From: Sphagnum compactum
Taxonomy: Eukaryota
Length of the DNA stretch: 64,000 nucleotides
Assembly: GCA_965153455.1 (NCBI GenBank)
Contig: OZ234493.1
Span: forward strand, 12,080,213 to 12,144,212
Direction of reading: 5' to 3'
How positions within the stretch are numbered: position 1 is the stretch's first letter; every line of letters starts with the position of its first letter. A model generated the notes under the pieces. It made no database searches. It worked only from the letters and a program-made list of their open reading frames with translations, and was not told where the DNA came from. Shown here in pieces: positions 18,578 through 56,451 of the stretch. Position numbers and translations under genes: made by a program.

Positions 18578-21199
18578 TTATAATTCCCCTTCTGCCCTGC
18601 AAAACATAAGGAGAAAACACCCAAAACCATGTGTCAATGTCCAAACTAAGTCAGCAGATCCACAAGATGACATGAATGTGTGTTGATATCACATTATGCA
18701 ATGGGAACTCAAACCACATTTGGATCATTTGTCTTGAGGCCTGTTGAAATTCCCGATCATGTTATGCTGCAGAAACTCAAACCACATTCAAATCATATGT
18801 CTTAAGAGGAAGGTCTTGCATACCGAAGATCTTCTACTGTTGACTGTAGCTTCTTTGAATCTGCTCCACTGAACTTGGATACAACTTTTCCTCCTCTATG
18901 AAAGAGGAAGGTTGGCTGATATGCACAACAATGAAAAGAAACCACAACCTTAGACCGGTTCCCCACTTGCAGCAGTACCCTTCATTAGCTGAAATCCAAG
19001 TACAGATGAAATAAGCTCTATTCAAGTTCTTACAGGCAAGGCATACAGCTACTACATAAACCACACCAAATGTGAGGAGGCAGAGACAATATACCACAGC
19101 ACTGATACCAGCAGCATCAACTGTCTTTTGCAGCTCGGGCTGAAACAAAGAACAAACTGCAATGTCTTATTCCAGAAGTTTGAAGATGGTTTAAATTTCT
19201 CAAAAATACATTTGCAGATGACTCCTTGTCTCTCATCTTGTACAAGAAGCTGTACATAATGTCACAGGTGTTTCAAATAATCTTTTCTTGAGCTAGAGTT
19301 TGATAGATGTATGTATCCAATATGAGTAGAAACCCAACTCTGAAGATCCTTGCCCTTAACTCAAAATTGAGAAGCAACCCATGGCAATGTTTTTTGAGAT
19401 AAGGAAATCAGCCAAGAAGATTCGTACCTCATCTAAATCAACTTTCAAAAACCTGACATCATTGTACTGACCACTCAGTCTGTCCACTTCTGGCGATATA
19501 TGCCTGCCTGATGTAAACCAAAAACTCAATACATGAGTTGTCAATCACCCATAAGTTTCTCATTTCCAGAACTCACAGACAACCTCATCAACTGCTTTCC
19601 AGACAGGATTTTGACTGTATGCTGTGAAATTAGAAACCCCTTTCCTAAAACCTCGAGAAAGAAACAGGTCAGCAACAGTTCAGAAACTTAACCAAAAATG
19701 GGAAACAAAAGGAGGCAGAGCTCAGATTGATTCAAGATGTAGGGTGAAAGAGAAAACAAAAACATAATGGCCACAACTTTGAAGGACATTGCACAAGGAG
19801 ACAGTCATGGGCATCAACCTTGAAGGACAATGTTGAACAATGAGACAGTAATGACCACAATTTTCAAGGAAATGAAACAAGGAGACAGTCATGGGCAACA
19901 ACCTTGCAGGACATTGTTGAACAAGAAGACAGTCATGGACGAAAACCTTGGAGGACATCGTTGAACAAGGAGACAGTCATGGTGACAACCTTCAAGGGCA
20001 TTTGAACAAGCAAGACAGTCATGGGTGACAACCTTGAAGGACATTGAACAAGGGAGACAGTCAGTACAGCGAGCTATGCCTAAAGCTTCCAGCGACTGTT
20101 CTAGTGCCACATAACAGTTCCATGATACCATGGGGAACAAGGGGTGAAGAAGAAGAAGACATACAAGGACCACACCACTTGGCCGTGAAGTATGTCACTG
20201 CGAGCTTCTTGTCATCTGCACAAACCCAGCATCAGTTGATAGAAAGAAAACTTCTTTACATTCAAGGTTGGTTGTTGAAAGCCCTAAATCTCTGACCCTA
20301 AATCTCTGGACTATTGATTCGGGTTGTCCATCAAAACTGCGATGTGTGTCAAAAAGCTTGCATCTGACACACCTTGCAGTAAAAAACAAGATGAAGAAGA
20401 ATAAGAAGATTGATGTCCCTGAAAACATCAGTAGGGGAAATCATTTCACAGCTCCGGATCAAAACCCTAAAATCGCTGACACAGAATTCCTTCTTCACTG
20501 ATCCAAAAACCAAATCCTGTTTTTTGTTGAAGAATGTGAAGAAAAAACAACCATCATCATCATGGTGCTTTCACAAATTGTTGCACAGCAAACCAACAGC
20601 CCTCTACAGCAGCCCCCATTGAGAGGTTTGTAAGTAAGGAAGTACCTTTCGCCTCCTTTAGCAAGGTGTCATACTGCAAGGACGAGTTGACTGCCACAAC
20701 TCCAGTAGATTGTGCTGCAATCTCCCAACAAACAAATTCAGCAGCCATACACACACAGAGACAGACACCTTCGCATGCACGCTCTCGTCTTCTTCATGAT
20801 CTCCTTCTCCTTCTCCTTCAAGACAAGGGAAGATGAAGACGAAGATAATCTTCTTGAGAAGAGAAGAAGAAGATCATCATCATCATTCTCATCTTCTTCT
20901 TCTTCTCCTTCTGCTTTACATGCAAGAGGTATTGGATTTATGTACGTACCTGCTTCTGCTGCAAAGAATCGGCTGGAATGCCAAGAAGGAGTCCTGTTGC
21001 TTGCTGAGAAACCGCGGAACAGAAGAATCCCGGAATCTGAAGAAGAAGCAGGAGGGGACGACGACGACGACGACGAGGGGAGCGGGGAAGATGTAGCTAC
21101 TGCACGAACGGTTGCAGCCATCCCCGAGCCACGAGTGAGAGAAATAAGTCCAGAAGGACGGCGCAGGATGTGCAGAGCTCCTCTTCTGGCAGCAGCCAT
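18578..21199 (-). CDS. TRXo: Thioredoxin o-type (mitochondrial-targeted), 7 exons, 201 aa
   Basis: Exons 21199-20950, 20714-20646, 20215-20165, 19507-19428, 19139-19095, 18915-18824 and 18596-18578, all GT-AG and frame-compatible (606 nt). Mature part reads ...KKLAVTYFTAKWCGPCRHISPEVDRLSGQYNDVRFLKVDLDEPELQKTVDAAGISAVPTFLFHRGGKVVSKFSGADSKKLQSTVEDLRAEGEL. The ~85-aa N-terminus is R/S/A-rich and acid-poor, like a mitochondrial presequence; YFTAxWCGPCRxISP is typical of plant Trx o. The last exon is less certain (read-through stop at 18802). Confidence 0.92.
19765..20062. repeat. Degenerate minisatellite (~41-44-bp unit, ~7 copies) in TRXo intron 3
   Basis: GACAGT core recurs near 19800, 19844, 19885, 19928, 19972, 20014 and 20056; unit AACAAGGAGACAGTCATGGGCAACAACCTTGAAGGACATTGTTG. 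Confidence 0.9.
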
Positions 21200-21761
21200 A
21201 TCTTCTTCTACTCGGCGGAAGGAAAAGCTTCGCGCGAAATCTGGACAAAAACGCAGATTCTTCTCTTGTATGACTCCGCACTGACAAGCGGCTTGAAGAA
21301 CGAACACACCTAAGTCATGAGAGACGGAGAGATTGCAGTCGAAGCTTGAAAGAAGAGGTGCATACGAAAGATCTCTTGACGACCTCCACGCCGATAGCAG
21401 CAGCGATTTCTTTCGATCGTTCTCTCTCCTCCCTCCTAAAGCACGCTCTTCGCGCATGCAGTCGAACGGGCACCGCGATCTAATGGTGCAGTGCAGAGGA
21501 GGAGCATCATCGCGCTTGGACGATCGACCCGATTGCGGACGAAGAAGACGTTGCCGGACAGACATCGATCGTCGGTCGTGTGTTTGTGCGCGCGCGCGCG
21601 CTTGTTGGCTCGCTTTCTTTTTCCCGTGGACTGGGAAGCCAGCCTCCAGGTTCTTCCCCCCGCTCCTGGCAATACCAGATACGCTCTTTCTGTTGCAGCG
21701 GAAGCTCGCTCTGGTTTTATGACATCGGCCACGACAAGAAGAGAGCGAGCGAGCGAAAGAG

Positions 21762-21794
<33 letters not shown>

Positions 21795-21838
21795 TCGGAG
21801 CAACCGCAGCAGCTGCAGATTTCTCGTACTGGTATGGT
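21200..21838. promoter_or_regulatory. GC-rich bidirectional promoter and 5' UTR region between TRXo and the F-box gene
   Basis: 639 nt between divergent ATGs; a CpG-rich island in an AT-rich window, with (CG)n at ~21587-21601 and (GA)n at ~21767-21793. Confidence 0.7.
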
Positions 21839-23138
21839 ATGGCAGCTGAAAGAAGGAGAGGAGGAGGAGGTGCAGCAGACACAAGAACTCGGGACGGATT
21901 GCAGCAGCAGGAGGAGGAGCAACGGTGCGTGGCGTTGCAATTGCCTCGTGACATGAGCAGACGCATCTTCTCGCAACTGGATTGCCGTGACCTCATGCAT
22001 TGCTCCCTTGTTTGCAAGTAAGTCTCTCTGTGTGTTGTTGCTCTTCTTCTTCTTCTTCTTCTTCTTCTTCGGCCTCCAAAATCCCTCGCCTCAAAACAAG
22101 AGTACAACAAGCAGGAAGTAAGCAGGAAAACAGAACAAGCTTTTGTCTCTCGCTTTGTAGCAGTCACGTCTGATGGTATTGCTTCCATGGCCATGTTTGG
22201 GAATTTCCTTCATCTCTTGTTGGAGGCTGGAGCCTGACAGTGTTTTGTTGTTTTTTCCCATGAATATATATATGCAATCTGCATGCACAACTTCTTCATC
22301 TTCTTCTCCAAAGATAGATAGAGAAATTCATGCCTGCCTGCCTGCCTGCCTGCCTGCCTGCCACTTCTGGTTTGATTGATTGCTTGCTGATACTGCCACT
22401 GCTGAGTTTTGAACCATCTGGCACATACATTTGGTCAGGGTTTTACAGAGCTTTGTGAACACTTTTTTGTGGGCAAAATGCTTTACAAAGTTTCTCAGAT
22501 TGTCGGATTTTGGAGTAAGCTTGATCTCCCCATCCGTCCATCATCTTGAGAGAGAAGCAAAGTCCTGTGAATTCACTATAGATATACAGACTATCCATTT
22601 ACAGCCTTGCTGATCCACCCTTCTGACAGATAATACAGCTTCTTGTGCTTGGTTGTACACACAAGAATGATAGTTTCACATGTATAGTACATGTGATCTC
22701 ATGTGATCTGAAGAAGAGTGACAAATGTCTGCAGAAATGAATCAAGAAAAAAATGCAGTTCCAACCGACCACAGTGTAATTGGAATTGTGTGTAGACTTG
22801 CATGAATGAAATCCTTGAGCCCTGTTTGTATGACTGATTGACTGACTGACATCTCCATTTGAAAACAAGCTGGTGAAAGAACAGGAGCGCAGCTGACTCT
22901 CTCTTGAGAAACAGTATTGTTGTGTGGATGGATTACATAATGGGGTGTTACATCCTGCGGGTTGGATTTTTTTTTTTGGTGTGTGGGAAGGCAATGGTGC
23001 AATGAGTCTGCAGAACTGAGAGAGGGATGGCGAGAAGAATGTTGGGCCGAGAAAAGTGTGCGAGGTCTCTTAGTGAATCGAGACAACAAGCGTGCACGTC
23101 CCCTCTACGATGCATACCTTGCTGGGAGTCCAGACTAA
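21839..23138 (+). CDS. Small F-box protein, 2 exons, 108 aa
   Basis: Exon 1 21839-22017 (donor AA|GTAAGT); exon 2 22991-23138 (acceptor after a poly-T tract, GAAG|G). The join gives the F-box LQLPRDMSRRIFSQLDCRDLMHCSLVCKQW, then CNESAELREGWREECWAEKSVRGLLVNRDNKRARPLYDAYLAGSPD*. An in-frame upstream ATG at 21719 is an alternative start. Confidence 0.85.
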
Positions 23139-30273: not shown

Positions 30274-31722
30274 ATGCGGGGCCAACAACAAACTAAAAAC
30301 ACTACTACTCGTAGTGTGGTTGCCTTTTACACTCCCCAAACAAGCCCGGGTTCTCACCACTTATTGGATCGAGATTATCGAACTAGCTACACATCGTCGC
30401 TACCATATGTTCAAGAAAGTTGGGAAACTCCTCCTAGTGTCTCTCATGACTTTCTAGCGGCGAACATTGTGAGGGATGAAGATTGGGATGTGCGTGCTCA
30501 TAACAAGTAAGCTCAACACATTATTGTTCCAATTTTCATGTCTAAATATGCATGGTGGCTTTTTTTTTCTTTTTTTTTAAAAACAAAATACTTGTGATTG
30601 CTTTTAATTAAAGCAATTTATTTAGTCATGAACAATGCCTTGGCTCAACCAAATTCCAAGGTCAAATGTGAATAATGATTATTTATGTCTCTTGACCTAA
30701 GTTCAACAATGGGTGCGTCACACTAAATTCCAAGGTTGCCATTTACATTTTAAAAAAAAAGGTATCTTGAGGCAAAAGATGAATTATGAAAACTCAAAAT
30801 ATTTCACCGTGCAAAAATATAATCTTCAAAATAGTCTTCTAAAATAAAGAAACCAAAATCCTTCAAGATATTATTATAACTCTATTATAACTAAAAATCT
30901 CAAGTTTCAACACAAGCCAAAATATCATCATCTTTCAAAAATCCTCATATAATAAAAATAGACCTATTATTATTATTATTACATAGGGGCCTATAAAAAA
31001 TCCCTTAAGCGATTGAGTATACTCTATAATGAATCTAAACACAAAAATCCTTTTGCCTTGGTAGCTAGCAAGGCCAATAATAATTAATTAATTCATACAT
31101 TTTCAGATTTCTATTTTACATACAAAAAAAAGGGAAAAACACTTCCAATTGCAAATTGCAGGCGCGTTAATGTATCGGAGTACATTACAGGGGAAGCGGT
31201 GGTTGTGCGATGCAATCAACACAAGTGGTTATTTGGCACGATCAAAAGGCTTTCAGCGCGAGGGGTGCGAGTATGGGTGGGCGACGCCCAACTAATGGTG
31301 AATGTTCCGATGGAATTATTGCAAACACATTTGTTAAAGATGTCGGTGTTCCTAGAGCTCACTTCGCTACCACCACAATCGAAGAAGCCTATGTTGAGAA
31401 TGGCAAGGATGGATGAATTAGGTCCAATGGATGAATTAGGACGAGCTTTGGTCCAATGTGTGCGGCCTGCACATCTCTCACATCGTCAACTTTACCAAAT
31501 GATGGGAAACAACAACAACAACCATATTTGTGTTATTTGCAGGTATTATTTAACTCATAAAATTAAGTGTTAATCATCATTTCATTAAATGAGTTGTGTT
31601 TTCTAACAATTGCAACCATCATCATCTTAATTTTAATTCCTTTCTTAAATTAATTAATGACCAATAAATTGAAAAAAAAATTCCAACTCTTCCTTAATTA
31701 ATGATGGACAATAAAATTGTAG

Positions 31723-31759
<37 letters not shown>

Positions 31760-33299
31760 CTCTCTCTCTCTCTCCATTCCTAAATATAATTTGCATCCAT
31801 ATCATTTTTGGCCTTTCCTTGGTAGGTAAGGATATTGTGTTTAAATTCATTAAAAATTATATAGTAGCTTAATGGATTTTTATAGGCCCCTATGTATATA
31901 TAATAGGTCTATATTTATATGAGGATTTTTGAAAGATGATATTCTGGCTTGTGTTGAAACTTGAGATTATTAGTTATAAAATTATAGTATTTTGAAGGAT
32001 TTTGGTTTTTTTTTAATTTTTTTTTAAAGGATTTTTGAAAGATTATATTTTTGCATGGTGAAATAGTTGAGTTTCCATATTTCTTCTTTTGCCTTAAGAT
32101 TATTTTTTTCATGTAAATGGCAAGGCCACAATAATAATGTGACACACCCCTTTGTATTGGGTTTTTCTTCCAGAGAGCAATTGCCACCAAAAGATGTAAT
32201 AAGCCCATGGGGATGTCTTCACCTCTGTCATTTGACATGCCTTCAAGAATCCCAAGCACATCATAATTTAACCTCAAATTGCCCTTTATGTGAGGAGAAT
32301 GTTGCAACCCACCAGCTCTTGGTTCCAAAGTCTCAAATCCCAACAACATCAGCCCCTACCAACATAAGTATTTTGGAACCTTGTGTTGAGCTTCCAAAAG
32401 AAGGTCCATGCACATACATGTGGAGATCTATCCAAGGCATGAGCTCCCTACCCATAGCTTGTCCCTCTTGCCATCAATCCTTGCCAAATAATAACATGGT
32501 GATGCCAACTACTACTACGTCACAAGGGGCATTGGGTCCTATGCCTTTGGAGCTAAAGGTTAATGCTCGATTCAAGGGCGATCGTGTTAGTAGCTTGATC
32601 TTGTATAGCTCTCCTTCAAGCTCCATTGATCCAAAAAATTTGGACCATGCGAACCCAACTTTCATACCCCAAGAAGGTGATGTTGTGGGTACTATTGTTG
32701 TATATAGTTCACCATCGGACCTTGCTCCTCAACCAATTTCTTTGCCTGTCAGGTTTCCCCTTGCCTCTCTCATTGACACATAACCCTTTGTTGTGATCAA
32801 AGATGTCATTAACTAAGTAGGCAATTAACCTACTTGGGTTTCACACATCAAGGAAACTTGGGTATTATTAAATGGGCAAACATTTTGTGTTTTGGTTTTC
32901 AGATTGCAAGCAATTGAAGAAGTCCCAAAGATTTTGTTACAATCATCATCATCAAACATAGATGATCTCAAGGGAAGAAGAGGACACCAAGGCATGGAAA
33001 AGGGTAGTCTATTTAACAAAGAATTAGAGGCATCCAAAATTGGACCATTCTTGCCACAACCTACTTTTGTGAACCATTTCCCTATGTTTTCAAACCTTGC
33101 CCAAAATGCTTCATCTTCCACAAGAATTTTTGCTAAAATGAATGGGGAAGATGTAAGTACATTAGAAAATTCAAATGAATTGGCTCCTGTTTGGGTAACC
33201 GTCATCAAAGATGGGCAAGATGCAAGAAATGTTTTGATTGGCAAAAAGGAGTTGGAGCAATTTGTGAAAGTGAAAGAGCTTGAATTCACACACAATTGA
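30274..33299 (+). CDS. Putative RING-H2 E3-ligase-like protein with an N-proximal Tudor/SH3-like segment, 4 exons, 529 aa
   Basis: Exons 30274-30506 (AA|GTAAGC), 31162-31542 (TTGCAG|G ... AG|GTATTA), 32174-32752 (TTCTTCCAG|A ... AG|GTTTCC) and 32903-33299 (GTTTTCAG|A). Three phase-2 GT-AG introns join four separately open frames into 1590 nt with no internal stop. The exon 2/3 join creates CVIC-x14-CLH-LCH-LTC-x13-CPLC, matching the RING-H2 consensus. The start ATG is uncertain and upstream exons are possible. Confidence 0.8.
30711..31077 (+). repeat. Repeat family A, copy 2 (intron 1 of the RING gene; left arm of the inverted repeat)
   Basis: Runs from GGGTGCGTCACA to AAGGCCAA and aligns along its length with the reverse complement of 31808-32149. 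Confidence 0.9.
31808..32149 (-). repeat. Repeat family A, copy 3, inverted (intron 2 of the RING gene; right arm of the inverted repeat)
   Basis: Reverse complement shares identical blocks AATCTCAAGTTTCAACACAAGCCA, ATCTTTCAAAAATCCTCATATAA, TACATAGGGGCCTATAAAAA and TTGCCATTTACAT with 30711-31077. Confidence 0.9.
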
Positions 33300-34597
33300 A
33301 TTGGTATTGATTTTTGTTCATATGGCAATTTTGTTAAATATTGGTTGTTAGTGTAAATCATTAACACTTTCTATCGAGTTTCATTCTCAAGGTCTGTAGG
33401 ATTCTTTCAATTTTCTATTGCACTTTTCATTGCTAATCTTTGACATGGGTTTGTGTTGTGGATGTGTTGTGATTGGTTGGCCACAAACTTAAAAATAAAA
33501 TGAATATTTTCAATATATGAAAAGTTGCAAAGTTTGTTTATGTTGACTCTTGTGATTCTTGCCACAACTCTGGACATTCTTCTTGACAAGTGCATTGGTA
33601 GAAAGCTTTGTGCACCCAAGTCTCATCCTAACCTCAATTTGCCATAGTCTTGTGTTACCCAAAATTTTGGCAGAGCAAATTGAGTTACTATGTTAAATGT
33701 CATTCCCTGCTTAAGAATACTATTTGTGGTCCACACATCATGTGAAAGAATAATCAACCATGATTTGTTTAACTAACCTCTTGCCACTATTTATGATAAC
33801 TTTAAAAGTCCAAATCCTTAGCAAAATTTTATTGCAAATCACCCTTCACACTAACTCCCATAATTAATGTTGGTGTGCAACAACACAACAAATTGTTTGA
33901 ACACTCCTATGTCCCACAAAATTTTGGAAAAGAGTCAAAAGCTTGAGGTTAATACATTTTTTTTTTAAATCCATCCATTCCAAAGGAGAAGGAAGTTAGA
34001 AGAGAAAGAAGAGAAAGGCTCACAATTAGGGGGGAATGTCCATCCATTCCAAAACCATTCCAAATCCGAAGGAGGTTGAAGGGGGGGAGGAGAAAAAAAA
34101 AAGGGTCCATGCCCCATTCCAAAGGACTAAGAGGTTGAAAGGAGAAATTTTTTGGGGTCAAATTGATGGAAAGGAGGAAAAGGTTGGAAAAGAAATAAGC
34201 AATTATTCACCCATTCCACAAGAGGAGGTTGGCAAAAATGTGAGCAAAAATTATAAGGAGAAATGATAAGTTTGTAAGTATGTTTGTGTACAAGTGGTAA
34301 AGCCCAAAGCAAGGGCATTACCAAAATAAGGGCATGCGCAAGGTGATAGTCAAATGCAAGCCCAATTTCAATGATGCCATTGTCTTTGGGCTTTATTTGG
34401 CTTGAAAATAAACCCATTGAAGTAAAGGAACAAAATGGAATTGCTTATTCAAAAAACAAAATGTGCCTCCTCTCCTTTGAGAATTTTTTTTGTTTTATAA
34501 TGTTACTTCCAAATACACTAATTTTTTTCTAGGAGGTATTTATGTAAAGGGAGAAAGTAGAACTGTAGGTAGGTACAAAGTCCTCATATACATAAAT

Positions 34598-36020
34598 ACC
34601 CTCACCTACCATGTGTACGATCCTGTCTACTGTCATGTGATGGTGATTATCATTTGCGACATGCAATCTAAAGACACAAGTGTTCAATGTGTCTTATGGT
34701 GAAAATTGAACAAGGTGATGTCGAAAAAAATGTTATTAATACAAACTTCAAGGGTTTCATGGCCAACAATGTTCAAGCCAATTTGAACGCAATACGAAAC
34801 ATGTATGATAATGGGGATCCCAATGAACCCATGGTCAATAGGGAGGGAACATGTTACTTCCATTAGACTCAATCTATGGACATACACACAAAACAACAAA
34901 TCAAACTAGAGATGTGTGAACAACACAAAACCTTATGTTATGAATATAAAAATGCCACCTCATTGGAAGAAACAAATGTTCACTATGTAACTGTTTAGTG
35001 TTGGTGGTATTCCTCGAGGGCTACAAATGTAGCTAGGCTTCAAAAGTTGAAAAATTGGTTCAGTTTCTAACACATTCATGTCAAACAATGGGGAGGCTTT
35101 ATGATACATATAATTTTCCCATCCCTCCTTCGCATTTTCCATCCCATCATGTTTTCATGGCTTGGTTACAATATGTTAGAATTAATTTAAAATGACGTTA
35201 ACAAACATATATTATGTTTTATAGAAATTCATTTTGAAGAAACTTGCAAACATGCCCACCTAGAAACCTCTCAAAAACAATGCATAACATATGGCTTCAA
35301 TAATTAAAAAAAAGGGGAGCTTCCTTGTACACTACAACTTTTGATGATCTTATATTTGAATTTTCAAGCCAACAATATTGTACTACCATTTTAAGAAGGG
35401 TGGTTCATTGGGTCAAGGGCTTAATAAAGTGAACCTCTTTTGCGTAAAGAAACTCAATCTAATGACCATGAGCGACTTGCAAACACAATTCTGAAACATG
35501 CATCAAGCTCATCTTTCACAACTAAAATCACACACATGGAAGGGGACAAGATCTTTGGCTTTTATGAATGAAAGCCAAACTTGTTCGAAAATCAGAAAGG
35601 GATTCACATAAGTAGGATTGTGTCAATTTTTCTTGCCCACATGTCAACACCCAAACATGAAGATTGGATGTGAAAATTGAGCAGCCTTCCTTTAGCGTTG
35701 ATTAGTATGAAGTTGTGGATATCATCGATGGAGGTGTTGAGGTCTTGGAAGTTATGTGTAAAAATGGAATGTGGCATATAAATTGATGTCCCCCTACAAT
35801 GTACATACAATGTTTAACATTGCAAAAAACCTACCAACCATGCATTCTTTCACCATAAGGATAAATACAAAGTTGACTGAATGACATGAATCATTACATG
35901 AAGGGTACAAAACATAAGTACGCATTGATAGACCAACGGTTCTATCTATTTGGCATGTGCAAAAAAAGACCAATCTCTCACAAGATGAAGTGAAATCTCT
36001 TGAAGAAAAAGGTTTTGTTT
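34598..36020 (+). mobile_element. Decayed Mutator-like (MULE) transposase remnant
   Basis: Translation across stops and frameshifts gives HVYDPVYCHVMVIIICDMQSKD, FKGFMANNVQANLNAIRNMYDNGDP...TCYFH* (MULE CxxH position), WWYSS...QWGGFM and TNLSQDEVKSLEEKGF. Confidence 0.65.
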
Positions 36021-36879
36021 TCAATAAATGACAATCTTTCTTTCCTCAAAATCTATTCGGTGGGGAAAATTTCATTCCAATAAATCAACCAATAGATGCA
36101 ATGTCATGGCTCACAACACAAAATGCGAAGGTTGTTTAACACACACTGCCATTTATGATGTCAAAACAACATTACAATCGGTGGGAGGCTAATCAGCTTC
36201 TTATACCAATTTTCAACCCACCATTGGAGGTTTTTACTATTAGATATGGATGAATATACAAGATTTTATGTGGTGAAATTTCAAGCAAGAGGCAATATGA
36301 AATTAGTTTCATTATTTGCATTTGCATGTATATTGCGACTAGGATTTCAAGTTTATTGGGGAAACAAGGACATGGGTCTCATGTAAACACATGTACTATG
36401 TATTATAACATGTCATGTTTTGTGGGTAGTTTGGAGATTTCATTCATTTCCTGAATTGGAGTTGTGATGAAATTTGTCAATTGTTGGTTTGTTTTGTAGT
36501 TTCTACATAGGTAGGAATAATAATAAAAAAATGACACCAAAAATTGTAAAATATATATTTTCCATTGTAACATTTAAAATGATGCAATGTGTTTCGCTCC
36601 AAGGCCAAAAATTGTGCCAATTGGTACTATTTTGATTTAGTATGTTTTGATCTGTTAAAGGATTAAATTATATAATGTTGATTCATAAATTTGATAGGTA
36701 TGAATCATGTTTCATTATGTGAAAAATCACACATCAAATTGAATGTGTTAATTAAATGTTCACTAATAATGCACAACACCATATGGGGTGGTTTAATCAC
36801 TTCCTCCTATTATTATTATTAAACAAAGTTAAAAGAATATTATTTATGTAATTAGAATGCTCCATTGATGCAAATGGAA

Positions 36880-38390
36880 AAAAATTGGCATGTAGACAAG
36901 ATATTTTATATACGTGGCAAGAATATTCCAAAAAGATTTTCTTGCATTCACAATAATGAACTTCACATGCTCACTTGGTAGCTACATTATTTCAAATATT
37001 ACGGAGTTTATCCAAACATTCAATAGATTCAAAACAACATTCCATATTTAAGCAAATATCAACACAATTAAACCACAAATGTTTATGAACACCTTTAAAG
37101 GATTGAAACATGCCACATTTATTCTATAAAAACAAGGAAATAATTGTTCATAATGACTTTAATATTATTTTTAAAAGTTGAATTTTTATCATTGAAGTTA
37201 AACATGTTCATCATTTAATACTCTCCATACATAATTTTACTAAACAATTTGAAAATGAAATCGTACATATACACGTCAAATAGAGCATGTTTATTGAGCT
37301 AAATTGCAAAGAATTATGCAAACAATGATGGACTTGTACATGGAATTTCAATGTTTTATTCTAACAGAGTTTGTGAACAAAAAACCATAAACTTAATTTA
37401 CACACATTCATTTTTGAATACAAACAATGGAATTCAACCAAAACAAACACCCATAGAAGTTATTGTTAAAGAAATAAGATTCTAGACAAATGCCATACCC
37501 ATTTCATGATTATAATTTTCAATTTAGTTGGCTATTACTTTAATGATTCATCAAGCCCAAGGGTTATTGTTAAATGAAATGTCACTTGACCCTACCTTTA
37601 TCACCAAAACATGGACTTGCCTCTACAACCCTTTCTCATGTCCATACAAAAGAAAATTGAATCCCTTAACCTTCTACAAAATTCAAAATATCCATGCCCA
37701 TGAATTTGTCACCTCGTGATTGAAAGAAATAGTTCATCGTTATTGGAGACCATTTCTTCCAACATTAAAAGGACAGCTTCACTTTTGCATTATCATTCAA
37801 ACCCTTGACATTTATTTGTTGAATTGACACTAGTAGGATGTTTACAATGTAATTTGTGAACATACCACAAATCATAATACTATGTCTTCAAGAAACAAGA
37901 ATTGAGCCATACATCACCCTGGTAAACAAAAAAAATAATGTATCAAACCTTTAGGAACACACAATCACGCATAAGTATAATTAACTTTTTATTCAAGGAA
38001 AACAATTAAACATGTTGGTTTGGAATTTATTGTAGTTACTTTTAATACTAACATTAAGAAAGCCATATAAATAAATTTTCCATATATATATATATATATA
38101 TATGTTACATTTCATGAATATAGCACCAACTTCATGTCCCCCAATTGTTTTAGGTGATTTCAACATTGGCATGTAAACAACCCTAATGTGGTTAGCGTAA
38201 TTTTCGACTACTACAACTTTTTAAATTTATGACCACATTGAACATGTCAAACATTGTACTCATATTTGCATAATAAAGAATGTTTCATTATTTGATCATA
38301 CAAGGACAAATGTCTCAACTTTTGAATTGTTTACAAGCACATATTAGAAGCATACAAACCAAATTATCATAAACCATTATATATTCCATG
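36880..38390 (+). mobile_element. Decayed Helitron remnant: PIF1-like helicase followed by an APE-like endonuclease (Helentron-type)
   Basis: Motifs in the expected order. Helicase: PHLFYKNKEIIVHN (~37113), NYANNDGLVHG (37312), LAITLMIHQAQGLLL then HGLASTTLSHV (37528-37640, helicase motifs V/VI). Endonuclease: ILCLQET (37877), IVLGDFNI (38144), SLFDH (38285), YHKPLY (~38365). Many stops and frameshifts. Confidence 0.75.
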
Positions 38391-41300
38391 ATATATTGCA
38401 CTCAAGTTCCTTAATAATATGCTTGTGTTCAATTAGAAACAATATTTTGTTGTCATTTACCCACCAAAAAATTGTCATATATCACACTTGAATATATTTT
38501 TCTACTAATTGTAATCATTAAATGACATAGCCATCCCATTATTCCATGTATCTTGTTCATGAAGAAACTAAAACAAATAAATACATATGTGTACTTAATT
38601 ACACCAAAAATAATGAAACCCCACCTCCCACAACCTATATAACATTATTACTAAAATCAACTAATATTAACCTTAACCTTCATTCGTAATAAGCCCAACA
38701 CAATATCAAATAATACACTAAAAGAATTAGTATGAATGAAATTAGCTTTGGGTTTTTGTGTGCTCCATAAATTTTCAATATTGCGTAATGAACCCAACTT
38801 ATTGCATGCCAAAAATAAATTCACATTCATATGTAGAAAAGATAACCAAAAATGTTTTTGACAACTCTCTAACCATCATAGAAATTAATCCTACAAATGT
38901 AGCCATTGTTATTTTAATGGTTTCATGTATGTTAAGCAGTATTCTAGTTTTAATTTTTTTAACTTCTTGGCTAAAAAAATGTTTTAGAATGTTTATTAAC
39001 TTAAACACATTTATGTGAAATATTTTAAATTAATCTTCTTTTAAGTCTTGGAATACAAGTACAGCAATATGTGTGTCAACAATAATTTAGCATCTTCCTT
39101 ATTATGTTTACTACCTTTTGTTCCTTGGTTGAAAAATTCATTGCAATCATCCACGTAATCCTTACCAAGCACAAGAATAGTCATGTAGCTAGTAGCAAAC
39201 CAAATTCTAACACAAGCAATAACTAGCAACAAAACTCGAAGGTCAATGAAGATATGGCATGTAAATACCACTTGTCTTGCAAGATTAGAAACCACCTAAC
39301 ATAAACAACTTGCTTCAAACAACACTGTTATGGCCTATGTGAATAAATTATATGGGTCATTCATCACTTTATTTTAATAGTGGTAGGTGTCTCCATAGAG
39401 AACCTCCACATAAATATCAACTAATGTATAAACAAGTGGTTCTTTAAATGAGTCCAACTTTGGATGTTCCAAATTGGACCAATTCATAAGAAATTAGAAA
39501 CAACTTGGTAGTGTTTGGGAACCCAACATGCAAATAACACTTCAAAGTTAACACCACCACTTCAAAAAGTTTTGATAAAAATCACTTGATGGGATTCTCA
39601 TCTGATTCTGAATTGAATTGAAGCTTGTGCCAAACAAAAAAATCTAGGGAATTAAACATTGATTACACCTCAACCATGAACTTCTTTAGAACATCTCACT
39701 TTTGATCTTCATAAACTATGGGCTAGTTCATGGCTTTTGTCATTGATCATTCTATACACATCAATTGTAAGGCCAAATGAAACCCCACTTTCATAAGTAC
39801 TTCAACTTATCAAACATGAAAAGCCATTGACCATTTTCACCATTCAACAACAAAAACCCTTGGTTCAACATATCCATGGCAATTGCTTGCATTAAAAACC
39901 AATTCTTTGTTTGCATGAATGACATTGTTTGCGTAATCATCTTCACATGTAAAACCTACTAATTACTTAAATTAATGTCCATCAAAGTGGATGTGTGGTA
40001 CCATAGTTTCATTAGTTCATTAATGATAGACGAACATTGCTAAAAACTAGCTCAAGGAAGATGCAAAGTTTGTATAGGTTGATAGAAAATTATAGTTAAA
40101 AGCTCAAATGTGTAACAAGCATTGAGGGGACCAAATTAGGTTTTTGCAAAGACACAACGACATTAAAAGATACGAACTCTTGAATATGCATATCATCATG
40201 TTCTCAACATCCAAATATGCAAACTTATTGTTCTTGGGTTCTACTTTCTTGGTGTTGATTGCAAGTTCTCTTTTTTCCAATTGAGCTCCACCTTTCCATT
40301 TTCTTATGCATAGTTAACAAAAATAATAGCATCTTGCAATTGTCCCTTTATACCTTACTAAGAAATAAGGTCTTGATAACATGGAATAAAGCAATTTCCT
40401 CTTTCTCAAGATCTTTACAACTTTACATGGATAGACAAACCATTAAGGTTGGAAGGACTTGCAATGGATAACTAAATATGAAAACAAAGGACCAAGGACA
40501 TGAAAGATATAAGCCATGCCAACAAAATTGAAATTGATTTCTAATTGACATGTATTACAAAAGATTTTATAGTCATTACAAGAATGCCCATGAATATGTG
40601 CAAGAAATGAAAATGCCAAGAAAGTTGAATTGAATATACTCACAAAAGAAATGTTTAGGTGTAGGAGTTGTTAGGCAAATTGTAAGAACCCAAATTGATA
40701 ACAAGGTCCAAGGGGTTGATCTAAGTAAGTATAACCTAGACTCCAAAAACAAACCAACACAACTTTTATAACATTGAATAGCTCACCCTGCAACACCAAC
40801 CACATAATATTCAAGAATTGAAAGAAGTTGTGATTATGAATTTTTTTACAAATCCTTCTAAGATCCCGACACACGTAGGCTCCAACAATAGTCATCATCT
40901 TTTTACACATCATGTATCCCTCCTACAAAATATTGTTTTCACACACATGACATTCCTCTTATTTTGCAATCTTTCCTAATTCAAATATATGTCTTACCTA
41001 TAAAGAGTAAACACATGGATGATGCCTAAACGCACTTTGATCATGCCAAAAATAAACAAGGAAAAAAAAAGTGGGCAATACTTTTGACCTACTTGCAATA
41101 AGGACCTATACTAGTTGATTTAACATCCTCATGACCCATAGCAAGAAATCATTGATTTAGTCATGAGGAGATCCATTGGCTATTATTTGTGTGCCTTCAA
41201 AAGAAAGCCTACACCAACCTTTTTTTTACTATGAAATTTTGCCAAAATTTGAAATAAAAAAATGATTTTGGAACCTTTTAGTTGCCAAAAGAGAGAAAAA

Positions 41301-44300
41301 GGTTTTAATTGCTAGATTCATATATTTGGTTTTCATCAACTACTAAAAATATATAGAAAGATGATTAAAAATTTGTACTTTATTTTTGGTTTGTGGCCAA
41401 ATTTGGCTAAATCTCCATAGGGCTGATCACCATTTCTTCTACATGTTGCTATAGACGATTGCCACTAGTTTGGCTATTAAAAAAATCCTAAAAGTCTGCA
41501 CATAGTCATTTCATGTGTAGTTATTTGATTAAAAAAGAAGTGATCAAATGGGGTTTTTTTTTTTTCCTGAAAACTTGATGTGAGGATTTGAAGAATATTT
41601 GAAAATCATCAAAATCTCCAAATATAATTGATGTTTCTTTCCCCAAACATGATAGGTATTAGATACAAATGTTTGAATTTTTTGAACAAAAGGTGATTTT
41701 GGTTGCCATTAAGGTTTAGGGTTATCAATTGAAATGAAAACATTTTTTATATTATAATGATATTCAAATTGACATGAAGGAGCATTGAACCAATAATCTA
41801 GGTTTTGTCACAACAAATTGTCCTATAACTTCATTAAAAAAAAACAAATTCAAATAAATGTTTTAAACAAATCACTACTATGTTTTTTCACACATTACTC
41901 AAATTTCAATGCAATGAAATTATGTTTATAACCAAGAATAAGGATGGAAATGTAGCTATTTAAAATCTCAAAGTCTAAATGCTAATAATCACCCTTAAAG
42001 ATCACTAGAACCTTAACAATGTTGTGGTTGAATCATATATACACAATCGCATTTCCAACATACTTTCTCATAAATAGGTCTTTTGGGCACAAGACACCAC
42101 TTGCAACCTCAAAAGAAAACCATATTTTACACATTCTATAAAACACTTCAAAACGTTTAACAAGGTCCCTATAATCCAACACATGTAAACACATTATAAG
42201 TTGCAAATTTGATCACATTTAACAACCCACGTAAGCACAAGAAAACACATCCAACCTCAAATCCAAAAAGATGACCACACACATAACTAACTTTAAATGA
42301 TCCAAGTGACAATCTCACACATTCATGTAGAATCCTATAGTTCTACAAAACATTGTAATTAAAAAAGGGAAAATGCATAAGTGAACTTCTTGTCCTATAG
42401 CAATTGAATGCAATTCAATGTAATTAACACCCTAACCTTCATCACTCACAATAGGCCATCTCATGTGATTGCACAAAACACATCCTTAGAAGCAAACTCC
42501 TTCCTTGGCAATGCCTTCCATACATTACAACCTTAAACATGTAGCTTAAAAATTCATAACCTTTGCCAACAATACAACACATGGCCACCACCCAAGCCAA
42601 ATGTGTGCAAGAAGTCGAATAGAAAGAAGACCTACACATGAAAATCCAATCGCATTATAAACATTCAATCCATCGATTAGTGAGTACTAGAAAGAAACCC
42701 AATCAAATGTGGTGGTTTTTAGAACCTCACAACACCTAATCCAACAAAAAAGGATTGAAAAAGCTTCCAATAATTATTCATGTGTTCTTTTCACTCTCTT
42801 TATTGTACACTTTAGGACTACCTCCCTTGACAATATTTCAAAAACTCAATAACCCAATAACCTTCCTTGGACACCTTGAATGTTTGTCCACAAGGCCAAT
42901 ATCAACCTCTCACAAGCAACATTTTAATAGATTGATCGTGTTTAAAACACACAACATAATGAAGTTGGGAAGTTATGATCCTAGCCAAAACTCAACAAGG
43001 AGGCCACAACTAAATAAGAACAAAAAACTAGAGAAAACAGAAAAGAAAATTCAAGATTTTTAAAAAAAAATGGAGGACATAGAAAAGATTTGTTTGGATG
43101 TCATAGAAAAGATATTTGCCCAAAAGTTTAACAAGTAGGCAACTACATGGATGTAATCATGCTAATATGTTCCAAAACAATTGGAAGCGACGTTATTTAA
43201 TATTTAATATTTTGAAGTGGTAATTTAAGTTGGTGTTGAAATTTTTGGATTTACTTATATAAAAAAATTCATAATATATTGTGGGAACATATGAATAGAT
43301 TTGAAATAAATTTAATGAATAAAAAATACCCAAAAACATTTAAAAATAGTTGTAACCATTTTTTTGCAATAGTTTTGTTGCTTAAAGGAGATGTAAAATG
43401 GTTTGAAAATATTTGAAAATGAAATATTTTTGGCAATTATCTTGGTATAATTCTCAACATAATAGTATAATTTTATTTTTCAGAATTTCCTAGAATAAGC
43501 ACAAATTAAGCAATCACTTAAGGGGGTGTTTCTAGTTCATTATATTGTGCTTGGACCCACATACAAACAAAACACTAGAAGTGAAAAAACCTCAAGTAAA
43601 AGGGGGGAAAATGGAAATACACATAGAGCACTTAGAGGATAACTTTATGGAAGCCAAAAGGAACCAAGCAAAACCTAGAGAGCATGTAATGCAAGTGTGA
43701 AAAAAATGTAAAAACATTAGAGTAAATAGAACAATGTGGATGAGGAAAGCTCAAATAAAAATAATAGAATTATGGAAAGGTGAAAGCTTTAAAGGGCAAG
43801 AAGAAAACAACAAAAAAAAATAAGCTTAAACCCCAAAGACTTAGAACCACACGAAAAAAAATTCAGGTCCATCATGTGTAAGGTTCATCCTATGAAAACA
43901 TTTGTATATTGGTTTGAAATTGATCCCCAATTCTTGAATCTGCAAGATATTTAGGTTTGGTTCCTAAATTGGATCTAATAAAGGAGGGTACATTTTGATC
44001 CAATTCCCAATAATTGGAACTAAAATCGTCAATTCTCACATTCCCATAGAAATATTTGCACAACAGTGGTAGTAACCCATGAATTTGATGTTGTGAGATC
44101 GTTCTTTGTAAGCACCTCCTTGAATTAACATCAAACCTTAAATCTTATATGATTTTGAACATTATAAAAGATTGCAAATGAGTGCATGAAACCATCGTTT
44201 AAGGTTTAATGTTTCATATTTGTTTGTTTTATTGAGAAAATAAGTAATGGATGCCCATGCCTTCATCTTTATGCCCAAGTTTTACAACCCAATAAAGGTA

Positions 44301-47300
44301 TGTTCATGTATTCCTTATTGTGGGAAATTGAAACATAAATGGTTTGTTGCATTTTTTTACATATTAGAGAATTGACCATTTACATACAACAAATTTTGAA
44401 TCATACCAAACTTAAAGAACATCTCCATCAACGCCCTAAAAAAGTTGATGAGCCCCCAAGGGCTTGTCACAAGGTATCGGGGTAAATTTTTCGATATAGT
44501 GCATTATGAAAAACTTGAAAGTTTTAAATGTGATTCTTAGCTCACACATTGGGATCAAAGGGGCATGCAATAGCTTTGGGATGGGACTAAAATGAATTCA
44601 ATATGTTCAACTTCATGTGAAGGCAATTTGCACCAACCAAGAAAGAAAATGGTTAATGCAAATTAGAACCAACATGGTGCATAGACGACCCATGAACAAT
44701 TCACATTCACAAGACAATGCATTCTGGACTTGGGAGGATTCATCACTTTTCTTTCCTACAATATGCTCAATGATTTGTGGCATGGATTGCATTAAAGTGG
44801 TAAGATTTCCCAAGATTCCAAAATGGGAGTCGGGTGCAATCACACTAACGTGTACACAAGCAATTGTAACCAATGCTTGGTTTTGTGTATTTAACATTTT
44901 AGAATCAAATAAATAATTCCAAAAGGAATTGCTTTCACATAATTTTATTTTCAATGTATTGTTATACATACTTTACAAGTTTGAAATCAATCTAATGAAT
45001 GAAAAATATCCAAAAGCACTTTGAAAACATTGTAACCAATGTTTTAAAGCAATAAAAGGACTTGTAAATGGATTTGAATGTTTTTGACAATGACATATTT
45101 TTAGCAAATGTTTTATGTAAACCATAACATAATAGTGTGATGAAATTTTTTAAGATTTTAAAAGATTTTTTTAAAGACTTTTGTCTGAAATATTCCAAAA
45201 ATATTTTAAAATAAACCCCCAATAAGTAGTCACCCAAGGGGGCATGTGTGGTTCATGATATCATGTTTGCACCTAGTCCCAAAAATTCCAAATTTCACCA
45301 AGTATGTAATTTTGCAAATTCATAATTCATGCATATAAACTTTGATTCAAAAAAAATCAAGGGAAAAAAAATAGCCTTGAACAAAGGTTTACAACTTTAT
45401 ATCATATGTTTTAATCAAATGTCATTTAACAACTTTTTGGACCTTTTAATGGACAAGAATCAAACTACAAGTTTAATTCTCAACCATTCTTTTGGCTGTA
45501 ACTTGTGTTCTAGATCTTCAAATAGGGAATGCTACCCCACTTTGGATATTCCACTTTTCAAAAGCCTAATTTGGACAAGGTTTTGTGCCTTGAACCTTAT
45601 TCCAAATCTTAAAAACACCATGGGATTCCAATTCCCACGTTTGAATCCACATGGGAGTGTTGGGACTCACTTTCTTTCATTTTTTCACAATTGTATGAGT
45701 GCTTGAATCCTAAGGCACTATTTCAGCCCACTTCCCTTCCCATGCTTTAACTTTGGTCACAAGCTTTAGGGTCACAAATTACAATAGGTCTCATACTTAT
45801 TTTGACTCCACTTGGAAGCATTCAACTTCCTTCATCTTAGGAAGAACACTTGCCCCTCCTAGGAATTGGTCACACACCTAAATTAAGTCATGACATTCTC
45901 ATTCACTTAAAACAAACATCAATGTTCTCATTGACATTATAGGACTTTTTTTAAAGCCCCATGATTGATTTCCATGCAATTGAAAGCCAAGCTTTCAATT
46001 TTGTTTTCAACTCAAGGCTTCACACTCTTTCATGTTTCATCACAACCTCAAAACAAGGTTGTGACAAAAATATTTCAAAATGAATTATAGTCATAGTGTA
46101 TGCCAATTTTGGTTAATAGATTGGCATTGGCCAAGTATGCTTACACATGATCTAATGCCTACAAAAGCAATTACATCTTGCAGAATATAATAATTGTTCT
46201 TAATTGACCAAATAGAATGATCGGTCTAGGTGGTTTTATTTAAATAGTCTCCCACCTTTTATTGTTTTAGTTTTCATGTTTAAGGGTGGGGTTTGGGAAG
46301 CAATTAATACAAGCAATCTTGGATGTGAAAAATATTGTTGGAAACCCCAAAAAAAGTGTATGTAAAGCTTTTTAAGAGTTCTACAAGTCTACCATTAACC
46401 CCTAAATGTTGACCATGAATGCTTGGAAACCAAAAATGATCTTTGTTTGAATTTTTCAATGAATGTAGTAGGCAATTTTTGCATTTTTTCCAAATTTTTT
46501 TTGACCATTTGGACTATGGTCATAGGCTCCAAATGTCATGCTAACAAGGGAAGTCCATGTCAAATTTATAGGGTTTTGATTGAAATAAGGCCTACAATGG
46601 CCTCTTTTGTAAGAGTGAGGAGGGTAATGATTTCTATCTAAAGGATAATATGAACCAATCTTGGGAAGGACAATCTAAAAAATGGTTGTAATTAAATATG
46701 GGAGGGTGGGGTGGGGCAACACTTATTATAGTTAATCCACTTTCAATTGATTAATTTTTTTGTTTCATGTTTTAGTGAGGACATTTAAAAAAAATTCATA
46801 GTCATAACAACTATATTGAGATTTGACTAAACATTTAGGGGTTAACACCAATGTTGTCAAGTTCACATTCATATTATGGGTTATTTTTTGGGATATATGG
46901 TCTAGAGGTTCACAATTTTGTTCAAATTGAATTTGGATCTAGACCACGAAACCAAACGTTTTCTTGAAATTAACACTTGAACTTGGAACAAGTAGTTTCG
47001 TTTTAAAAAAATTATGTTATATGGTTTCTTTTAGAAGTACAAGGTTTTTAAAAGTGCAACAACCAAGCCCTATTTATAGGTTGTGACAATTCAACTTTTG
47101 GGCCACCTTATGGGATAATACTCCATAGTGGTGTTGTGTGCATTTGGCATCACCAAACCAAAAAAGAAAGATGATGTGTAACTTAGACTCAAGGAACTAC
47201 CATTGATTTAGTGATTTAATGTTATGTGGCTACCAATTCACATATTCCACCCTTTTATGAACAAGTTGAAAATTCATGGTGCAGCTCTCCCAAAAAAAAA

Positions 47301-56044: not shown

Positions 56045-56207
56045 CAAGATATTATTATAACTCTATTATAACTAATCTCAAGTTTCAACACAAGCCAAAA
56101 TATCATCATCTCTCAAAAATCCTCATATAATAAAAATAGACCTATTATTATTATTATTATTATTACCAATTGGCCATGAAATCCCTGAAGCTAATATACT
56201 CTATAAT
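56045..56207 (+). repeat. Repeat family A, copy 4 (truncated)
   Basis: CAAGATATTATTATAACTCTATTATAACTAATCTCAAGTTTCAACACAAGCC... matches 30864 onward. Confidence 0.9.
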
Positions 56208-56451
56208 GGTACTTTCATTTTTTTAATAGCCAAAAAAATTTGGTCCTAGTCCATCAAAAAAAAGTTCATCTAGGTACTTACCTCAACTTGCCTTTTACTA
56301 AAATAATAATAATTTAATAATATGGGGCGAGAGTGGCCAGTTTCCGCATACTGATAGGGTATCAAATGCGTAACTGGGAATGAAAATTTTACAAAAAGGA
56401 AATAAACTGGGACCGAAACATGCTTTCCACCAATTTTGGTGGTAAACTGAA

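Follow-up and report, generated by a model that had tools for sequence, protein, structure and literature searches.

A conserved four-exon gene of Sphagnum compactum predicted to join an SH3-like barrel to a RING-H2 finger

A 64,000-nt stretch of the Sphagnum compactum genome (contig OZ234493.1 of assembly GCA_965153455.1, positions 12,080,213 to 12,144,212 of the forward strand; hereafter the window, in whose own numbering coordinates are given) harbors at positions 30274-33299 of the + strand a gene whose predicted product combines an SH3-like barrel with a RING-H2 finger. Judged by its sequence and by comparison with related loci, this gene is real, selectively maintained, single-copy and composed of four exons. 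It belongs, in the explanation that we consider probable, to an ancient family of the green lineage whose members would be RING E3 ubiquitin ligases equipped with a new recognition module. In the corresponding mechanism, the RING-H2 would recruit a ubiquitin-charged E2, the N-terminal barrel would recognize a substrate or ligand, and the protein would act as a single-chain E3 ubiquitin ligase. Our confidence in the ligase step taken by itself is lower than that in the explanation as a whole, and ligase activity, the ligand of the barrel and expression are properties that we infer.

Gene Structure and the RING Joint

The gene model was rebuilt from the window, and its four exons together comprise 1590 nt, corresponding to 529 codons and a terminal TGA, with no internal stop. 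The first exon (30274-30506, 233 nt) starts with the ATG, which is preceded seven codons upstream by an in-frame stop, and it encodes a variable, probably disordered N-terminus. It is followed by exon 2 (31162-31542, 381 nt), exon 3 (32174-32752, 579 nt) and exon 4 (32903-33299, 397 nt including the TGA), and the three intervening introns span 655 nt (30507-31161), 631 nt (31543-32173) and 150 nt (32753-32902). All of them begin with GT, end with AG and interrupt the frame in phase 2, and their acceptors are preceded by pyrimidine-rich tracts. The GC content was 0.37-0.46 in the exons versus 0.27-0.37 in the introns and 0.343 in the window. A first-pass annotation of this DNA, made from the letters and a list of open reading frames (ORFs), had proposed that four ORF entries splice in frame through three phase-2 GT-AG introns, and this was reproduced by the reconstruction. 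No paralogue of the gene was found in the window by tblastn.

The conserved elements of the protein are distributed along all the exons. Exon 2 encodes the barrel (31190-31339), a linker, the motif VRPAHLSHRQLY (31460-31495), an (AAC)5 tract and the first C-x2-C of the RING (31529-31540). Exon 3 carries the remaining six RING-H2 ligands (to 32291), the remnant of a second knuckle of the C-x-C...C-P-x-C type (32406-32474) with another residue in place of the second cysteine, and a low-complexity region; exon 4 encodes a disordered region together with WVTVIKDGQD (33192-33221), the conserved motif of the C-terminus. In the spliced product, a RING-H2 regular expression matches residues 201-244 as C-x2-C-x14-C-x-H-x2-H-x2-C-x13-C-x2-C, in which cysteines 1 and 2 are supplied by exon 2 and the other six ligands by exon 3. 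The finger thus arises only upon the joining of these two exons, as had been stated in the first reading of the sequence. The repeats described at that time inside the exons were also all located, namely an 18-nt duplication at 31409/31427 in the exon 2 linker, with 16 of its 18 bases identical, the (AAC)5 tract at 31508-31522 and an ACT run, (ACT)3, at 32508.

Independent evidence for the joint came from a distant homologous locus, designated L004, which was recovered from metagenome contigs together with other loci described in the next section. It is 62% identical to the window over exon 2 and encodes the barrel, the VRPAHLSHRQLY motif, a full RING-H2 and the second knuckle in one frame (395-1357), with 14 residues between RING cysteines 2 and 3, exactly as in the spliced window product. 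Since coding in L004 is contiguous across the exon 2/3 joint and keeps the same spacing, the join is independently validated. In addition, two short ORF-type relatives (P0006 and P0017) stop directly after the first C-x2-C, which fits the presence of an intron at that place in other relatives. The earlier contention that the join is unlikely to be a product of chance therefore stands on comparison, that is, on motifs conserved within each exon, on the frames and splice sites of orthologues and on the contiguous L004, and not on arithmetic.

Two side observations concern this part of the locus. L004 has no counterpart of intron 2 and its second C-x-C...C-P-x-C knuckle is intact, while that of the window and of its close orthologue L002 is degenerate; the missing intron in this 1706-bp record may reflect either intron loss or a transcript-derived contig. 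An antisense ORF of 181 codons (32825-33370, - strand) overlaps exon 4, and we take it as a by-product of the + strand coding frame.

Orthologous Loci and Selective Constraint

Metagenome contigs were scanned with a 7-row alignment of the closest relatives, which yielded ten loci, six of them retained (L001-L006). The other four candidates (L007-L010) were dropped, being GC-rich (0.65-0.72), weak (E 6e-5 to 8e-4) and without a tblastn match to any of 12 family proteins at 1e-4. Pairwise differences placed L001, L002 and L005 in one lineage and L003 and L006 in a second, with L004 distant. Collinearity with the window across 10-30 kb identifies four of the loci (L002, L003, L005 and L006) as orthologous.

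A comparison with related genomes by tblastn, combined with the ratio of non-synonymous to synonymous substitution rates (dN/dS), had been suggested in the first-pass annotation as a check of the gene; when carried out on the related contigs, it revealed intact frames and splice sites and dN/dS values of 0.17-0.50. L002 retains all four exons and all six splice sites, and its spliced frame comprises 524 codons and a stop; the start codon and the donor of exon 1 are retained in both L002 and L003. Relative to L002, each of the 12 exon indels has a length divisible by three, whereas this holds for 11 of the 42 intron indels (Fisher p 3.9e-6), and the same pattern was observed relative to L006, with seven of seven exon indels against 6 of 17 intron indels (p 0.005). 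In L003, the aligner broke one exon indel into pieces of 6, 1, 6 and 7 bases, and tblastn reads a single continuous frame there.

The dN/dS values were obtained by the Nei-Gojobori method, with a binomial p for the excess of synonymous change. The whole gene gave 0.42 against L002 (33 synonymous and 51 non-synonymous differences; p 3.1e-4), exons 1-2 only gave 0.17 against L003 (p 2.3e-7), and the comparison with L006 gave 0.50 (p 0.03). Exon 2, which encodes the barrel, showed the lowest values against the orthologues (0.15-0.25, with a full span of 0.06-0.32). Regarding copy number, contig depth was 35-47, as expected for a single-copy gene, over parts of the locus in three related organisms, against 1e4-1e5 on repeats located in the introns. 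Depth at exon 2 was 0 in the contigs of organism C, and organism E had almost none at exons 1-2, though such coverage holes prove nothing, and exon 2 is the most divergent part.

Expression

Support for the exon junctions from RNA sequencing had likewise been proposed as a check, and it was not obtained. In a polyA RNA run bearing the same species label (X22), of which about 12% (1.8 billion letters) was read, depth was 0 on the four exons and no splice joints were found. All 680 reads placed on the locus sit on two repeats located in introns 1 and 2; none is at least 99% alike, and since they match the repeats at <95% identity, they derive from other copies. This result counts against appreciable expression in that sample. 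Nevertheless, it concerns one library, about 12% read, with no neighboring gene as a control, so that a stage- or tissue-restricted transcript could be missed.

These data raise the alternative that the gene is silent or becoming a pseudogene in Sphagnum compactum, its open frame being a relic of recent constraint. The absence of exon reads in X22 is joined here by other points that weigh against a maintained and functional gene: exon 4 has the highest dN/dS (0.63-1.08, calculated on few substitutions), the second knuckle is degenerate, the window and L002 both lack an aromatic residue that stands five positions beyond the sixth RING ligand in most relatives, and the nucleotide identity to L002 in exons 1-2 (90-91%) is no higher than that in the introns (88-93%). 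On the other hand, the frame is intact over the lengths given above in both the window and L002, with all splice sites retained, every one of the 12 exon indels is in frame, three comparisons give a dN/dS significantly under 1, and a transcript limited to a stage or tissue would have escaped the single library. Altogether, we consider a silent or decaying gene very unlikely, and the gene is treated below as a maintained one.

The Protein Family and Its Conserved Modules

In the fold and search tools, the window protein was represented by separate exon translations, by the L004 protein and by family alignments, rather than by its joined sequence, and the results described from here on should be read with this scope. 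A phmmer search with the exon 2 translation against 1.84 billion representatives identified 19 proteins at E<=1e-3, ten of which reached E<=1e-10. A word-index protein search with exon 3, restricted to longer proteins, had 0 of 1326 candidates at E<=1e-3, and the same kind of search with the Selaginella relative P0007 returned the query itself, or itself and P0009. These are the two named records of the family: P0007 is the hypothetical protein SELMODRAFT_407694 of Selaginella moellendorffii (455 aa), whose UniRef name is 'RING-type domain-containing protein', and P0009 is the EukProt record SM000047S16895 (624 aa). The remaining taxonomic range consists of contigs from samples labelled 'moss metagenome'. 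As the family spans a EukProt record, a lycophyte and Sphagnum compactum, it is therefore old, and the earlier suggestion that it may be lineage-specific was not supported, the family being present in Selaginella and in SM000047S16895 as well.

The modules of the family were read from an alignment in which the window product was set against L002, L004 and nine long relatives, complemented by a motif table. Their order is fixed: N-terminus, barrel, VRPAHLSHRQLY segment, RING-H2, second knuckle, a long low-complexity stretch and the C-terminal motif. The N-terminus is variable and carries a proline/serine-rich motif, often of the FP-x-SP type, with which FYTPQTSP of exon 1 (30325-30348) aligns. 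The barrel is characterized by the signature G-E-x-V-x-V-R-C-N-x-x-K-W ... V-R-V-W-V ... V-N-V-P-x-x-L-x-x-T-H-L. The RING-H2 pattern was found in 6 of the 19 relatives (P0007, P0009, P0011, P0014, P0015 and P0016), in addition to the window, L002 and L004, and the C-terminal motif in 7 of the 19. The second C-x-C...C-P-x-C knuckle is present in P0009, P0014, P0015, P0016 and L004, and its second cysteine is replaced in both the window and L002. Each of the four exons of the window gene consequently bears a motif that is conserved in distant relatives.

Beyond the barrel and the finger, the VRPAHLSHRQLY segment, predicted by AlphaFold2 as two short strands just N-terminal of the RING in the exon 2 and L004 models, and the C-terminal motif are co-conserved and would represent accessory elements. 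The idea that the C-terminal motif docks on the barrel was put to a complex prediction of exon 2 residues 1-120 with the last 47 residues of the protein, run without controls or alignments, which scored 0.00, gave no verdict and weighs in neither direction. Pfam provides no model for the barrel, for the VRPAHLSHRQLY segment or for the C-terminal motif. The combination of barrel and RING is not described by Pfam, in agreement with the initial impression that the architecture is not recognizable from known plant families, and a full-text literature search, judged by titles and the starts of abstracts, returned no description of the family, of SELMODRAFT_407694 or of SM000047S16895. The domain combination and the three unnamed conserved elements thus appear to be undescribed. 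Members are already deposited in databases as hypothetical proteins, and the gene itself is therefore not new.

The RING-H2 Finger

The evidence for the RING of the window protein consists of the ligand pattern, of exon-wise scans and of the contiguous L004 homologue. The Pfam family zf-RING_2 (PF13639) matched exon 3 alone, which holds a half-RING, with E 0.35 (11.6 bits), and the contiguous RING of L004 with E 0.034 (14.8 bits), while the best homologue, P0016, scored 22.1 bits. A profile of the family itself, run by hmmsearch against the PDB, retrieved 8i3x (5.6e-4), AT5G66160 (1.1e-3) and Arkadia (3.4e-3), followed by AMFR, RLIM, RNF165, RNF13 and EL5; ribosomal L32 zinc ribbons also appear in this list from E 0.039. 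In the L004 model, the RING was predicted with a local confidence (predicted local distance difference test, pLDDT) of 88-94, and this part aligned over 48 residues to chain 8adl_A of the SEA complex, in a part that we take to be a RING (Z 6.2, root-mean-square deviation, rmsd, 2.4 A, 27% identity). For the barrel-to-RING part of the Selaginella protein, the nearest cluster in the ESM Atlas was a RING cluster (0.92), and the Atlas structure search placed PHF19 first (template modeling score, TM, 0.43 by query, 119 aligned residues).

Membership in the RING-H2 class is indicated by the ligand pattern and by profile similarity, and is not reached by the Pfam score, the gathering cut-off of 27.3 bits lying above exon 3, L004 and the best homologue alike. 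As a predicted feature of the family, the RING-H2 is supported as conserved, with the eight zinc ligands and their spacing retained from the EukProt homologue via Selaginella to the window gene. A RING contacts its E2 through a hydrophobic residue after Cys1, an aromatic one after Cys6 and a proline ahead of Cys7, and a basic linchpin follows Cys8. In the window protein, an Ile after the first cysteine and a Pro before the last cysteine pair are present, and these hydrophobic and proline positions are conserved in the family. The aromatic position is the one already mentioned as missing in the window and L002, and the residue following the last cysteine is Glu in the window lineage, with no member of the family having Arg or Lys there.

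These departures, together with the Pfam scores under cut-off, weigh against a catalytic finger and lead to a second alternative, in which the RING would be a non-catalytic zinc module and the barrel, the VRPAHLSHRQLY segment and the C-terminal motif would act as an adaptor or scaffold. The same direction is indicated by four long relatives without the RING pattern (P0008, P0013, P0018 and P0023), two of which, P0013 and P0023, retain the barrel, the VRPAHLSHRQLY motif and the C-terminal motif, so that the core of the family may work without a RING. However, such RING-less rows may be faulty gene models, the ligands and their spacing persist across the whole span from the EukProt record to Sphagnum, the hydrophobic position after Cys1 and the proline before the last pair, positions at which a RING touches its E2, are conserved, and the family profile matches active RING-H2 ligases in the PDB. 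We regard a purely structural finger as unlikely and retain the RING E3 ligase as the probable reading.

The SH3-Like Barrel

In the first-pass annotation, the exon 2 segment had been read as a Tudor/Agenet/KOW SH3-like barrel, with AlphaFold and Foldseek as a check. This segment did model as an SH3-like barrel. AlphaFold2 with a 20-row alignment gave exon 2 a mean pLDDT of 78.6, rising to 93-97 at residues 10-60, and predicted strands at 12-16, 22-30, 34-39, 44-49 and 57-59 with a short helix; the L004 model repeated the barrel at pLDDT 90-96. Foldseek against the PDB returned Spt5 KOW as the best match of the exon 2 barrel (E 0.016), with PWWP and the Tudor domain of SND1 also matched, and the Tudor domains of PHF1, PHF19 and MTF2 at E 0.03-0.05 (TM by target 0.63-0.74, rmsd 1.8-2.2 A), in which PHF19 and PHF1 reached TM values of 0.71-0.74. 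VIA-align, run against 48,161 representatives, ranked first a PWWP domain bound to single-stranded DNA (6kco, Z 8.2), an MBT repeat (7.6), the Tudor domain of FXR1 (7.3) and SAWADEE (7.3), and next Sgf29 (7.2), the Tudor domain of TDRD3 (7.1) and Agenet (7.0), the 49 further rows listed spanning Z 7.6-6.1. The VIA-align and Foldseek rows also include CarD, KOW, myosin SH3-like domains, the UvrD C-terminal domain and Hfq. The same VIA-align list was obtained with the L004 model, and most of the rows listed in both searches are SH3-like barrels by title.

The placement of the barrel among particular families is less firm. Foldseek returned no match at E<=1e-3 for the barrel against the PDB, and its VIA-align Z scores are not clearly above background, Z 7-8 being the typical best for models without a clear match; both points weigh against a specific reader assignment. 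Among the Pfam profiles, none of Tudor, Agenet, PWWP, MBT or KOW fell on exon 2 at E<=10, the only match being TubC_N (0.085), and no family fell on the barrel in ten homologues at E<=0.1. The ESM Atlas had offered RNase II winged-helix clusters for exon 2, which were rejected at a best score of 0.86, below the trust level of the tool. It follows that the SH3-like fold proposed in the first place was sustained by AlphaFold, Foldseek and VIA-align, whereas the reader function proposed alongside it was not supported, no profile of Tudor, Agenet, PWWP or KOW matching and the structural scores being modest. At the level of fold class, the models support an SH3-like barrel for the exon 2 segment, with the 'Royal' reader domains closest to it.

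With respect to the ligand, the shared fold of the models would not settle the question by itself, and the residues of the barrel point in two directions. The family alignment has only two conserved aromatic positions in the barrel, both Trp, which presumably occupy two of the four Tudor cage positions, the other two being here Cys and Leu/Met; an aromatic cage for a methylated ligand comprises three to four residues. The loop between strands 1 and 2 has conserved R, C, N/S and K residues and one Trp, forming a basic patch, and this R-C-N-x-x-K-W loop would equally suit a nucleic acid or an acidic peptide. A third alternative, compatible with a RING E3 ligase, is that the ligand of the barrel would be a nucleic acid or a peptide without methylation, as for KOW, DNA-bound PWWP, CarD and Sm domains, and not a methylated histone. 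It draws on the basic loop and the scarcity of conserved aromatics, and on the matches to PWWP with single-stranded DNA, Spt5 KOW, CarD, the UvrD C-terminal domain and Hfq. Yet most rows of both VIA searches are Tudor, MBT, chromo-barrel, SAWADEE and Agenet readers, and the two invariant Trp residues seem to lie at Tudor cage sites. Such a ligand is tentatively to be kept in view for the barrel of the probable ligase, as a possibility of lesser weight.

Comparison with Known Proteins

The closest known proteins are P0007 and P0009, which have the same order of elements as the window protein, that is, the barrel, the VRPAHLSHRQL motif, the RING-H2 and a C-terminal W-x-[ST]-[VI]-I motif. Their identity to the window over exon 2 is 56% (E 5.9e-25) and 40% (E 5.1e-15), respectively. 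They differ in their N-termini and low-complexity linkers, and P0009 has an intact second C-x-C...C-P-x-C knuckle, which the window protein does not.

Among characterized proteins, the RING-H2 ligases of PF13639 (Arkadia/RNF165, RLIM, AMFR, AT5G66160 and EL5) share the C3H2C3 pattern and its spacing, with profile E-values from 5.6e-4 to 0.6. In contrast to them, the window protein has no basic residue after the last cysteine and sub-cut-off Pfam scores, and these ligases do not have the barrel, the VRPAHLSHRQLY segment and the C-terminal motif of this family. The Polycomb-like proteins PHF1, PHF19 and MTF2 resemble it in another respect, having a Tudor-type barrel followed by a cross-brace zinc finger, and PHF1 was the best Foldseek row for the two-domain model (E 8.9e-3). 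However, their finger is a PHD without ligase activity, whereas that of the window protein is a RING-H2, and the identity is 15-21%, with no sequence similarity. The Tudor domain of these proteins has a four-residue aromatic cage, of which the window protein matches at most two Trp.

The union of a Tudor-type domain and a RING in one chain is also known, and proteins of this kind are, with the Polycomb-like ones, the nearest analogues of the window protein in architecture. UHRF1 and UHRF2 comprise a tandem Tudor, a PHD, an SRA and a RING, and RNF17/Qin has a RING and Tudor domains. They resemble the window protein in having both domain types in a single polypeptide, and the Tudor-PHD entries of UHRF1/UHRF2 match it weakly (Foldseek E 0.07-0.09; Z 6.6). 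They are nonetheless animal proteins with a different order and number of domains and no detectable sequence relation, and the window protein has neither SRA nor PHD.

The defining property of a RING ligase is the recognition exerted by its parts outside the RING, and this family couples a RING-H2 to the barrel fold class of chromatin readers and RNA-polymerase-associated factors. A bolder version of the ligase reading would be that an undescribed ancient green-lineage family has a Tudor/PWWP-like barrel with an unusual two-Trp pocket hard-wired to a RING-H2 and a C-terminal motif, and that it is a ligase directed to a mark or a nucleic acid, an analogue of UHRF1 of independent origin, possibly absent from seed plants; as a whole, this combination is rather doubtful. 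If seed plants do lack the family, early land plants would have possessed a regulatory module that was later lost. Moreover, the present example shows that genes of this type are recoverable from raw sequence, with comparison to host contigs in metagenomes as the sole means of validation.

Intron Repeats

Introns 1 and 2 carry copies of a repeat of about 300 bp in opposite orientation, at 30736-31052 (+) and 31828-32123 (-), with 78.7% identity over 324 bp, and further copies were found in the window at 2205-2485 and 56045-56208. The repeat is very abundant in four related assemblies, with a summed contig depth of 1e4-3e5 versus 35-47 for the exons, and both intronic insertions are common to the orthologous loci. 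The inverted pair flanks exon 2, whose 381 nt could be skipped with the frame kept, and it might influence the splicing of this exon through skipping or back-splicing. Intron 2 also contains a compound microsatellite, (CA)16.5 followed by (CT)9.5, at 31724-31774, and is the most divergent of the introns (88%).

The synonymous rate (dS) of exon 2 against the orthologues L002, L003, L005 and L006 was 0.24-0.31, versus 0.03-0.07 in exons 3-4, a several-fold difference (Fisher p 7.5e-6 for L002). This raised value may stem from a mutation rate that is locally heterogeneous between the inverted repeats, from old haplotypes or from gene conversion.

Genomic Neighborhood

Downstream of the gene, the L002 and L005 alignments skip from 35135 to 44967, leaving about 9.8 kb of the window without a counterpart there, while the L006 alignment runs on through 35878-42441. 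Judged from these alignments, the segment 35135-44967 is a lineage-specific insertion or deletion. Upstream, an ORF at 21440-22018 (+), terminating in an F-box (Pfam F-box-like, E 1e-6, 28.8 bits, above the cut-off), lies in a GC-rich stretch (about 20700-22200) where conservation with the orthologous loci is highest (94%). This ORF is probably the first exon of a neighboring F-box gene, which would therefore place a second gene of the ubiquitin system about 8 kb upstream of the first.

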